Assembly: GCA_013335095.1 (NCBI GenBank)
Contig: JAAXWF010000003.1
Coordinates: 154,048-218,047, forward strand
Length of the DNA: 64,000 nucleotides
Direction of reading: 5' to 3'
Origin: a candidate division WWE3 bacterium
GTDB lineage: Bacteria; Patescibacteriota; 4484-211; GCA-002791395
Position numbers: made by a program. The first letter of the stretch is position 1, and every line of letters begins with the position of its first letter. Below are positions 12,001-15,000 of this stretch, in pieces.

Positions 12001-15000
12001 TGTCATTAATGGAGCGGACAAGGGAAGTCGGGTTTATGAAGGCCCTTGGTATGCGTTCAAAGGAGATAAAACAATTGTTTTTAACCGAATCCTTAATTAT
12101 GGGTATCTTTGGCGGTACCTTTGGATTGATATTCGGTTATGGCGGAGGACAACTAGTCAGCCTTGCATTATCGGCGTATTCGTTATCGCAGGGAGGGGAT
12201 TCTATTAATATTAGTAGTCTGCCATGGGAACTCATATTGGGCATCCTGGGACTATCACTTTTTGTCGGCTTAACTACTGGACTCTATCCAGCAAGACGAG
12301 CTACTCGTATCTCTGCGTTAAATGCATTGCGTTACGAATAACCGCATGCGTGTAAAATAGTAACGGAAGACTTTAATAATATTTTTCTATGAATTACCTT
12401 CCAATAATATTGACCGGCTTATCAACTGGTGGTTTAGCATGTCTTTCTGTGCAAGGTGGTTTATTAGCGTCGATATTATCTAATCAGGTTAAGCAATCCT
12501 CATCGAATTCAAAAGCTTCGTATCCGTTCGTTATGACTGTCTCATTTTTAGTATCTAAGCTTCTGGCGTATATTATTTTAGGAGCTTTACTTGGTCTTTT
12601 AGGCAGCTCGATGCAACTTTCTGTGCAAACTCGTGCCATTATTCAATTGCTCTCTGGGGTTTATATGATATTAGTAGCGTGTAATATATTGGATCTGCAT
12701 CCGTTATTTCGTTATGTTATTTTTCAACCACCAAAGATATTAAGCCGATATATTCGTAATACTTCGAAAAAAAGTGATATGTATGCTCCTATCTTACTCG
12801 GTATAACAACAATATTTATTCCTTGTGGCACGACATTGGCAATGGAGGCTATGGCGATGAGCACGGGGAGTATGGTTCATGGATCCTTAATCATGGGGTC
12901 TTTTATTATCGGCACGACACCCTGGTTTATGGGGATCGGATGGATTACTCAATCACTTTCGGCAATTCGCCGGCAGTATTTTTTTGTAATCACCTCAATA
13001 ATTCTTATTTATTTAGGTGGTGCAACAATTCGCGGCGGCATCAATCTGCTTGGTATTACGTATCCAAACTCTCAAATTACCCAGCACGACCACGTAATAT
13101 CTTCAGGAACCGATACACAGACCTCAGGTCCGGTGCAATTGCATGATGGTAAACAAGTCATTGATCTTACGGTACTACCGGATGGGTATTTACCGAACCG
13201 CTTCCAAGTTCATTCAGGTCAGTTAGTTGAAATTCATTTAAAAACGAGCAGGGTTTATTCGTGTGCCCGGGCTTTTGAGATCCCAGCATATAATATTGAG
13301 AAAATACTTCCAGAAACAGGTGAAGATATAATAACTTTTACCCCGACGCAAAAAGGTAATCTAACATTTTCATGCTCTATGGGAATGTATAACGGGGTCA
13401 TCGAAGTATTATGAAACATGTCGAAACAATAACTATTTCGGTTGAAGGATTACATTGTAGTTCCTGCATACTAATGATCGAAGGGGAACTTGAGGACCTT
13501 GAAGGTGTTAATCAGGCAAATGGTAATTATGCTCAATCTACCATTCGGATATCTTACGATCCGTCATTAGTTGAACAACAAACCTTGCGTGAAACTATTC
13601 AACGATTGGGATATGAAATTGGAAAGTAAACTATTTAATTTTTAGTGTGTATGTTATGATATTGTAGTATCTACAAGTATGGAGCAATATAAAAGTACGG
13701 CCAAAGACGTCTTTTCGCATTTGCTAGCAATAGTAACTCTTTATGTTGCTGTTGTGAGTAGTATCTCATTGCTTTTTCAATATATAAATTTTCAATTTCC
13801 GGATCAGCTCAACTTTTCAATTCTCGGCATCACCGAAATTATTCGTACATCTGTATCGGCTATCGTAATTGTATGGCCGGTCTATTTATTCATGTCGTGG
13901 CTTATTGCAAAAGATGAAGCGGCTCATCCCGATAAACGTGAGATCTGGGTCAGAAAATGGCTGTTGTACTTCACGTTATTCATAGCTGCTATAACTATGA
14001 TCATTGATTTGGTAGTTCTTGTGTTCAACTTTTTGGGCGGAGAAATCTCTATTCGATTTTTCCTTAAAGTCGTCGCGGTATTAGCTGTCGTTGGGTCTGT
14101 CTTCGCATTCTATTTGTGGGATATACGAAGGACTCTTGTTCCTGGCGATAAAAAACGTCAGTTATATGGCTATATCTCGACTGCATTATTGGCAATAACT
14201 GCTATAGCGGGATTCTTCATTATCGGTTCTCCGACTAAACAGCGTCAGATTAGGTTTGATGAACAGCGCGTATCTCATCTTCAACAAATTCAGAGTCAGG
14301 TTGTATATTATTGGCAGACTAAGCAGTCACTCCCGAATGATCTCACTCAATTAAATGATAATGTGAATGGATTTACCGTACCAACTGATCCAGAAAATTA
14401 TAGTTCGTATGAATATAACGTTAAGGAAAAGACTACGTTCGAGTTATGCACCACATTCACCCAAAAGAGTTTAGTTAACGCTGTTCCTCAAGCTTCTACT
14501 AAACCTGTCGGTATTGATGAACTTGCCAATAGTAGTTGGATACATGATGCTGGGCATGTATGTTTTAGTCGAACCATTGACCCAGATAAGTACCCGCCAA
14601 TCGATAGTCAGAAAGTACCAGCGGTACCACTATAAATTATGCATAGGTTTCATTCACTTACTCCTAATATTATGGTCGAAAATGTATCCGATACAATAAA
14701 TTTTTATAGAACCATATTTGAGTTTGAATTAGTCAGTAGTGTTCCAGGTGAAGGCGAAGAATACCAGTGGGGATGCGTTGAAAAAGATGGGATTCAATTA
14801 ATGTTTCAATCACGAAAAAGTTTAAGTAAAGAAATACCCTATTTTACAGAATTACCAATCGCAGCTAGTCTAACTTTTTTCATTAAAGTATCCGGCATTT
14901 ATGAGTTATATCAACGATTAAAAGTTTCATTAGAAGTTGTGAGTGATTTACACACTACAACATATGGTATGCGAGAGTTTGCCGTTCGTGATTTGAACGG

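Follow-up and report, generated by a model that had tools for sequence, protein, structure and literature searches.

The window analysed here, a stretch of 64,000 nucleotides from a candidate division WWE3 bacterium (GenBank assembly GCA_013335095.1, contig JAAXWF010000003.1, positions 154,048 to 218,047), carries on its forward strand two overlapping genes that encode a membrane protein of 341 amino acids (window positions 12389..13414, stop codon included) and a CopZ-like heavy-metal-associated (HMA) protein of 72 amino acids (13411..13629). The larger protein combines a six-helix transmembrane (TM) domain of the DsbD_2 family with a disordered linker and a C-terminal cupredoxin domain that resembles pneumococcal CupA, and the smaller one is cytoplasmic. 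In the predicted arrangement, a membrane domain that bears Cys and Met residues connects a chaperone in the cytoplasm with a CupA-like site outside. We tentatively propose, at somewhat less than an even chance, that the two proteins form a Cys/Met ligand-exchange relay that spans the cytoplasmic membrane and most probably carries Cu(I), perhaps with other soft metals as well. The analysis establishes the domain identities, the conservation of the ligands, the predicted topology and the linkage of the genes. An earlier note, made from the sequence alone, had described a metal-handling pair, and the domain identities, the HMA linkage and the existence of natural fusions all bear this description out.

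The membrane protein and its HMA partner

The two genes share the tetranucleotide ATGA (13411..13414, forward strand), where the start codon of the HMA gene lies inside the TGA stop codon of the membrane-protein gene and the junction reads ...GTA TTA TGA AAC...; both open reading frames (ORFs) and their overlap are as the earlier note had described them. NCBI holds an identical 341-amino-acid protein (NTV31340.1, 'hypothetical protein HGA91_05195', candidate division WWE3), which is only ~45% identical to its nearest relatives and is the sole member of its own 90% cluster. The family counts 1585 homologues at 90% clustering, and the TM domain alone matches 2582 clusters at 50% identity. The pair is therefore not a chance arrangement, given the identical NCBI protein, the many homologues and a 4-nucleotide (nt) overlap with an HMA gene that recurs among them.

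The membrane domain comprises residues 1-221 (12389..13051, forward strand; limits from DSSP of an AlphaFold2 model) and matches DsbD_2 (PF13386) at 97.4 bits against a cut-off of 24.9, with residues 7-211 covering profile positions 3-198 of 199. The model of the whole protein (mean predicted local distance difference test, pLDDT, 76.6) shows six TM helices in a 3+3 arrangement, with TM1 kinked near G14-G15 and TM4 broken at I144-P145-C146. Among the families that had been suggested for checking, the CcdA/DsbD-like assignment stood, in the form of DsbD_2, and the others did not: TauE/SafE gave no Pfam match at E <= 0.01, ArsP/DUF318 was rejected for want of any Pfam or NCBIfam match, and the protein matches no NCBIfam model at all. 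A P1B-type ATPase could likewise be rejected, as the earlier note had already stated, because DKTGT, CPC and the A, P and N domains are absent.

Conservation was counted over 150 representatives of 50%-identity clusters, with denominators that vary by alignable position. Cys18 (TGT, 12440..12442, forward strand), in the TM1 motif GGxxCxxVQGG, is Cys in 133/133 representatives, and Pro145-Cys146 (CCT TGT, 12821..12826, forward strand), in the TM4 motif P-C-G-x-T-x-A-M-[M/E/Q], is just as strict, with both residues present in 146/146. Both cysteines are also invariant in the 40 closest homologues. Methionines accompany them: M93 in TM3 is Met in 131/149 representatives and M152 in 113/146, and of 146 representatives, 74 have Met at position 153, 52 have Glu and 10 have Gln. 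Such conserved methionines beside the membrane cysteines indicate soft-metal chemistry, and not just thiol-disulfide exchange, and their flanking position would be typical of Cu(I) pathways.

The cupredoxin-like tail (residues 250-341; 13136..13411, forward strand) is predicted to lie outside the cytoplasmic membrane. Residues 252-338 match Cupredoxin_1 (PF13473) at 39.1 bits against a cut-off of 27, and the modelled, beta-rich domain superposes on a solved cupredoxin-like protein as a CupA-like beta-barrel, which, together with the six predicted TM helices, agrees with the earlier description of a polytopic membrane protein with a cupredoxin-like tail. A PDB sequence search with the 341-amino-acid protein returned only two proteins of Streptococcus pneumoniae, CupA (4F2E/2MRY, E 0.002) and CopA, the latter through its metal-binding cupredoxin domain (4F2F, E 0.003); identity between the tail and CupA is only ~25%.

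Within this domain, Cys292 (13262..13264, forward strand) aligns to Cys74 of CupA, which bridges both Cu(I) ions, and is Cys in 117/118 representatives. The segment Cys329-Ser-Met331-Gly-Met333 (13373..13387, forward strand) aligns to Cys111-x-Met113-x-Met115, with C329 kept in 115/116, M331 in 103/115 and M333 in 102/116 representatives; all four ligand positions are invariant in the 40 closest homologues. CupA binds one Cu(I) with high affinity through the bis-thiolate pair C74/C111 and a second through C74, M113 and M115 (PMC5646241; PMC7558416). By this alignment, the tail carries the complete, conserved ligand set of a CupA-type binuclear Cu(I) site. A type-1 copper site (His, Cys, His, Met) was rejected: the loop C329-S-M-G-M-Y-N-G contains no His, and the conserved ligand-like residues are Cys, Cys, Met and Met. 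The earlier note was thus right that no type-1 ligand set is present; it overlooked the Cys...Cys-x-Met-x-Met set.

The HMA protein begins with MKHVETITISVEGLHCSSC and matches PF00403 at 52.7 bits against a cut-off of 24.8, in keeping with the earlier reading of a CopZ-like partner. Its metal-binding loop, GLHCSSC, includes the CxxC motif Cys16-Ser-Ser-Cys19 (13456..13467, forward strand) as read directly in the sequence, and relatives have GMHC(S/T)SC at this place. The best PDB matches are metal-binding domains of Cu-ATPases and CopZ. The best NCBIfam match is NF033795, the Bacillus subtilis-type CopZ, at 55.4 bits against a cut-off of 91, and the protein stays below the cut-off of every NCBIfam CopZ, MerP, MerTP and CopP model. 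As all CopZ, MerP and CopP scores are sub-threshold, it is best described as a generic HMA protein that resembles CopZ. It has a net charge of -6 and no signal peptide, its first strand starting right at the N-terminus; the HMA partners of relatives are likewise acidic, with a mean net charge of -2.7 and a conserved DLEDL patch.

The topology of the membrane protein was assessed by counting Lys and Arg per loop segment over 81 family members. Loops 1-2, 3-4 and 5-6 carry on average 3.7, 5.5 and 1.2 such residues (together ~10.4), as against 0.4 in the N-terminus, 0.05 in loop 2-3 and 0.01 in loop 4-5 on the opposite side (together ~0.5), so that by the positive-inside rule both termini lie outside. 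The basic loop 3-4 spans residues 101-128 and is both long and conserved. Eight relatives have an additional N-terminal TM helix after a Lys-containing N-terminus, followed by a Ser/Pro/Thr-rich linker, a pattern that would agree with an N-out/C-out arrangement. Natural fusions, identified by motif counts and a Pfam scan of 10 proteins, provide a further view of the same architecture. Specifically, P0256, P0258, P0264 and P0268 run from an HMA domain through a basic linker and an extra TM helix to DsbD_2 and one or two Cupredoxin_1 domains, and P0259 is an HMA-DsbD_2 fusion. Because the fused HMA domain has no signal peptide and is thus cytoplasmic, and seven TM helices follow it, the cupredoxin domain should lie on the opposite side; the fusions also link the HMA protein functionally to its membrane partner. 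In P0258, encoded at positions 8001-9821 of locus L081, a Cys/Gly-rich linker (SCGGGGGGCGCG) connects the two outer domains.

Genomic context of the family

A scan of species-representative genomes gave 571 relatives of the DsbD_2-cupredoxin gene, here called X, and the context counts that follow come from the best 80 loci (L001-L080), almost all of them in Microgenomates-type bacteria of the candidate phyla radiation (CPR). An HMA gene of 68-78 codons stands directly 3' of X in 76/80 loci, and in 45 of these 76 the two overlap by 4 nt (43 times as ATGA); most of the others are no more than 5 nt apart. The translational coupling that the earlier note had read from the overlap in the window is supported by this tight, conserved arrangement.

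The gene directly 5' of X is a P1B ATPase gene (copA) in 69/80 loci, and in 59 loci no more than 60 nt lie between the end of its reading frame and the start of X. The encoded E1-E2 ATPase of ~740-770 amino acids has an HMA domain with an N-terminal CxxC as well as DKTGT, CPC and TGE, and it satisfies the copper-translocating P1B model TIGR01511 with 654 bits against a cut-off of 397. A repressor of the CsoR family (PF02583) is encoded in 46 loci, and in 46 loci a true CupA orthologue lies 5' of copA, with 120 amino acids, a single N-terminal TM helix and C-x-M-x-M in 46/46 (for example L059, positions 1214-1576, E 6.5e-24 against 4F2E). Basic residues after the TM helix of these orthologues suggest a cytoplasmic domain, as in pneumococcus. 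The common operon order is csoR - cupA - copA - X - copZ. A 2020 review describes CupA as confined to a few streptococci; its orthologues are common in the cop operons of CPR bacteria, well beyond the few streptococci named in reviews.

This context corrects two elements of the earlier note. X is not, in general, an alternative to a P-type ATPase, since it directly follows copA in most related loci, and the suggestion of an import device is at odds with the usual position of the module after copA in CsoR-type copper-resistance operons, which argues against a role in nutritional import. Examination of neighbourhood conservation, which the earlier note had recommended, reveals a firmly kept HMA gene and, at the same time, an unusual window copy that has no copA, csoR or cupA within 64 kb.

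Minor contexts exist as well. L019, L023 and L027 combine X and the HMA gene with a CopY-like repressor, an M56 protease and a DsbA-like protein, and DsbA-like neighbours occur in ~14/80 loci overall. L081 contains a fused HMA-X gene, two flanking DsbA-like genes, a CopA of 929 amino acids and a two-component system upstream. In L031, a core merA (positions 4563-7330; TIGR02053, 521 bits, cut-off 454), with a C-terminal Cys-Cys and no N-terminal HMA domain, stands 1 nt ahead of X, an HMA gene comes after X, and in L023 a core merA (1337-2740) lies ~3 kb 5' of X. These loci suggest that the module can serve mercury detoxification, too.

In L046, a 173-amino-acid ORF directly 5' of X (5475-5996) corresponds to the C-terminal part of a P-type ATPase only, and no HMA gene follows X; this looks like a decaying copy of the operon. 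L001, L005-L011 and many other loci come from third-party metagenome assemblies titled 'uncultured Gammaproteobacteria/Pseudomonadales', yet they have the operon and ~45%-identical proteins of the Daviesbacteria and Levybacteria loci, and the titles look taxonomically unreliable. In NCBI and IMG, relatives are named 'hypothetical' or 'sulfite exporter TauE/SafE[/copper chaperone CopZ]', of which 'TauE/SafE' is a misnomer for this family. A literature search for the fusion, or for DsbD_2/Cupredoxin_1 proteins in a copper context, found no study of the X family.

The proposed relay and its alternatives

The data are compatible with a model in which the acidic HMA protein would hold Cu(I) in the cytoplasm by its CxxC motif and would use the basic, conserved loop 3-4 as its docking platform. 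From there, the metal could be exchanged with a membrane site made of C18 and P145-C146, with M93 in the inner half and M152 and M/E153 in the outer half as Met stepping stones, and with the tethered outer tail, which would offer a bis-thiolate site (C292/C329) and a Met-rich site (C292/M331/M333). Each step of this path, from the HMA CxxC via loop 3-4 and the membrane Cys/Met site to the outer CupA-like site or in reverse, would proceed by thiolate/thioether exchange. Such a relay draws support from the HMA fusions and the conserved coupling of the two genes, from the Cys/Met pattern in the membrane, from the copper-resistance setting of relatives and from the charge complementarity between acidic HMA partners and the basic loop 3-4. 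Metal transfer through the membrane, and its direction, are inferred; the path resembles the MerP-MerT-NmerA pathway for Hg(II). The csoR-cupA-copA-X-copZ context argues that the module is made under copper excess and helps to remove copper or to hand it over at the outer face. In the WWE3 bacterium, the pair may act without any adjacent P-type ATPase.

Several observations weigh against this proposal. With copper stress outside, thermodynamics make it difficult for a passive relay to run outward from a chaperone of ~1e-18 M affinity, and an inward relay beside CopA looks futile. The alternation of Glu and Met at position 153 leaves no obvious universal proton-coupling residue. In the model, the flexible linker of ~30 residues before the tail is disordered, with pLDDT < 50 at residues 227-245. 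Neither a copper regulator nor a copper pump was found in the 64-kb window, and a literature search found no experiment on any member of the X family. Furthermore, one Cys in TM1 and one in a TM4 Pro-Cys motif are the hallmark of CcdA/DsbD electron transporters, and L019 and L023 each have a DsbA-like (Thioredoxin_4) gene directly 5' of X, while such genes also border X and CopA in L081.

In the main rival explanation, which we regard as less likely, X would be a self-reducing external copper acceptor. Here, the DsbD_2 domain would conduct cytoplasmic reductant via C18 and C146, in the manner of CcdA, DsbD or ScsB, and keep C292 and C329 reduced; the outer domain would take Cu(I) from CopA or would trap and reduce copper at the surface, and the HMA protein would be the chaperone of CopA, kept adjacent or tethered by fusion. 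In CupA, C74 and C111 reduce Cu(II) and become oxidised, and what resets them is an open question (PMC5646241), one that a built-in reductase would fit. The membership of the DsbD superfamily, with its single conserved Cys in TM1 and in TM4, a weak match to DsbD_TM (PF02683, CcdA-type; 24.3 bits) and the position of CopA directly 5' of X in most loci speak for this explanation as well. The arrangement of DsbA-like neighbours recalls ScsC/ScsB. In contrast, the DsbD_TM score is below its cut-off of 27.1, and TM1 has Gly-Gly where the PCxxP motif would place Pro; DsbA-like neighbours are present in only the ~14 loci mentioned above; and the window pair persists without CopA or a thioredoxin-like neighbour. 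Moreover, a cytoplasmic HMA domain fused to the membrane domain is not something that a thioredoxin-fed electron shuttle needs, and the conserved Met near the membrane Cys have no part in disulfide exchange.

It is also conceivable, with a clearly smaller likelihood, that the ligand-exchange relay runs inward as a Mer-like uptake route, in which the outer Cys/Met site would scavenge Hg(II) or Cu(I)/Ag(I) and pass it via the membrane Cys pair to the HMA protein, with MerA or CopA as the sink. This is the inward-direction form of the relay, and it is nearest to the 'import/sequestration device' of the earlier note. The merA-X-HMA locus L031 and the upstream merA of L023 would fit, as would the sub-threshold scores of the HMA protein on MerP and MerTP models, and a passive thiol relay should naturally flow toward the tighter, energised sink; inward flow is left possible by the thermodynamics of a passive relay together with the L031 locus. 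Set against this are the rarity of merA (only 1-3/80 loci, compared with 69 that have copA directly 5'), the absence of merA among the window neighbours in Pfam scans and an outer site of the CupA Cu(I) type, not of the MerP type. Co-transcription with copA under CsoR would mean expression when copper is abundant, a condition in which import would do harm or serve no purpose.

Two further explanations carry little weight. That the six helices are an anchor only, with the tail inside the cell and feeding a P-type ATPase as CupA does in S. pneumoniae, is very improbable: the tail is structurally closest to CupA and the CopA cupredoxin domain, and CopA adjoins in relatives, but the positive-inside distribution predicts N-out/C-out, the seven-TM fusions put the tail opposite the cytoplasmic HMA domain, the CopA of relatives has HMA rather than cupredoxin metal-binding domains, a distinct CupA orthologue with one TM helix is already present in the same operons, and invariant Cys, Pro and Met would be needless in a mere anchor. 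An anion or organosulfonate exporter with a fortuitous HMA neighbour, as the TauE/SafE name borne by relatives in NCBI and IMG would have it, can practically be dismissed in view of the missing TauE/SafE and NCBIfam matches, the Pfam assignment to DsbD_2, the systematic linkage to HMA, CopA, CsoR and CupA, and the Cu(I) ligand set.

Extended from the pair to its relatives, the ligand-exchange relay would make this family a new class of ATP-independent soft-metal (Cu(I)) translocators on a DsbD/LysE-superfamily scaffold, widespread in CPR bacteria, in which a membrane Cys2-Met site mediates between a dedicated cytoplasmic HMA protein and a tethered CupA-type site; we hold this broader view with some reserve, as rather more doubtful than not. 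The current account of bacterial copper export comprises P1B ATPases, resistance-nodulation-division pumps and soluble or tethered chaperones. If the relay explanation is true, a DsbD-superfamily protein of six helices, with a copper-chaperone domain on either face, could extend this list by a new type of transporter; alternatively, if the reductase explanation is true, it could contribute a built-in reductase that answers what re-reduces the CupA cysteines (PMC5646241). The family is large, is mis-annotated as TauE/SafE and is concentrated in CPR bacteria, a group with little-known envelope biology.

Window surroundings and comparison with known systems

Queries with CopA, CsoR, CupA-like, DUF305, DsbA-like and CopY-like proteins (tblastn, 64-kb window) matched the two genes only, the CopA query matching the HMA gene alone. 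The neighbours of the pair in the window yielded no thioredoxin-fold gene. An 832-amino-acid ORF at 37324-39822 was considered as an ATPase and rejected, being a polysaccharide deacetylase. The pair lies inside a string of co-directional genes from 2681 to 15043, no convincing promoter or terminator brackets it, and one tRNA is the only RNA element found in the window.

Upstream, 2681-12341 encodes a 2380-amino-acid protein with Kelch repeats, fn3 and purple-acid-phosphatase-N-like domains, followed by a MacB-like ABC ATPase and an FtsX/MacB permease, with gaps of 1-3 nt; these genes may form a secretion or surface-protein unit and have no apparent connection to metals. Directly 3' of the pair, 13679-15043 encodes a 318-amino-acid DUF5671 membrane protein, whose C-terminal domain contains Cys, and a 134-amino-acid protein of the glyoxalase/bleomycin-resistance fold, neither of which is kept beside the pair in relatives. 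On the reverse strand, 15094-17270 holds two ORFs of ~350 amino acids without a Pfam match, which resemble surface proteins of CPR bacteria. The N-terminus of one is signal-peptide-like, and its sequence contains internal repeats (...GxWGLG...); the other abounds in Thr, Pro and Ser and has a hydrophobic segment at its C-terminal end. Between 44000 and 50000, GC content rises from ~0.39 to 0.45-0.53 and five ORFs of 190-370 amino acids lack a Pfam match; the segment may be of foreign origin or specific to the lineage.

Among known systems, the tail has its closest counterparts in S. pneumoniae CupA (4F2E/2MRY) and the CopA cupredoxin domain (4F2F). In X, the domain follows six TM helices and is predicted outside, whereas CupA has one N-terminal helix and a cytoplasmic domain. 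The CopA of X relatives has an HMA metal-binding domain where pneumococcal CopA has a cupredoxin one, and the relatives encode a CupA orthologue besides.

The membrane domain shares a superfamily with CcdA, DsbD and ScsB (PF02683; TC 5.A.1), including the 3+3 six-helix core, the TM1 Cys and the Pro-Cys in a broken TM4. As in DsbD, extracytoplasmic domains are fused to the core, and the CcdA/DsbD/ScsB family has also been linked to copper resistance (family summary in PMC4608589). Unlike CcdA and DsbD, X belongs to the sister family DsbD_2, has Gly-Gly in place of Pro in TM1 and conserves Met around the Cys; its partner is an HMA metallochaperone rather than a thioredoxin, and the predicted acceptor is a Cu(I)-type cupredoxin rather than a thioredoxin fold. 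With other DsbD_2 ('UreH-like') proteins, X shares the Pfam family and the TM4 P-C-G motif. Some of these 'UreH-like' proteins are thought to be Ni permeases, and the usual TM1 motif of DsbD_2 is H-C-x-x-M-C-G. X has G-G-x-x-C-x-x-V-Q-G-G at this place, with a CupA-like domain and an HMA partner added.

The logic of MerT, MerP and NmerA is alike, in that an outer soft-metal domain, a membrane Cys pair and a cytoplasmic HMA domain are arranged for thiol exchange. X differs in having no MerT homology, an HMA protein inside rather than outside, a cupredoxin as the outer domain and copA, not merA, as the dominant context. Membership of the MerT/MerP group was rejected, as only the HMA part matches MerTP and MerP, below their cut-offs, and it has no signal peptide. 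With CopZ-CopA, the pair has in common the CxxC loop, the acidic surface and, in relatives, an operon shared with a CopA-type P1B ATPase; here, however, the HMA gene is coupled or fused to a DsbD_2-cupredoxin protein and not to the pump, which the window lacks. Taken together, X is a member of Pfam DsbD_2 with a tail that groups with CupA in Cupredoxin_1, and, while it may be Mer-like or DsbD/ScsB-like in its working, it is a member of neither group. Its parts, DsbD_2, a CupA-type cupredoxin and HMA, are known; their combination, in which a six-TM Cys/Met domain joins a predicted outward CupA site to a coupled cytoplasmic HMA protein, is uncharacterised.

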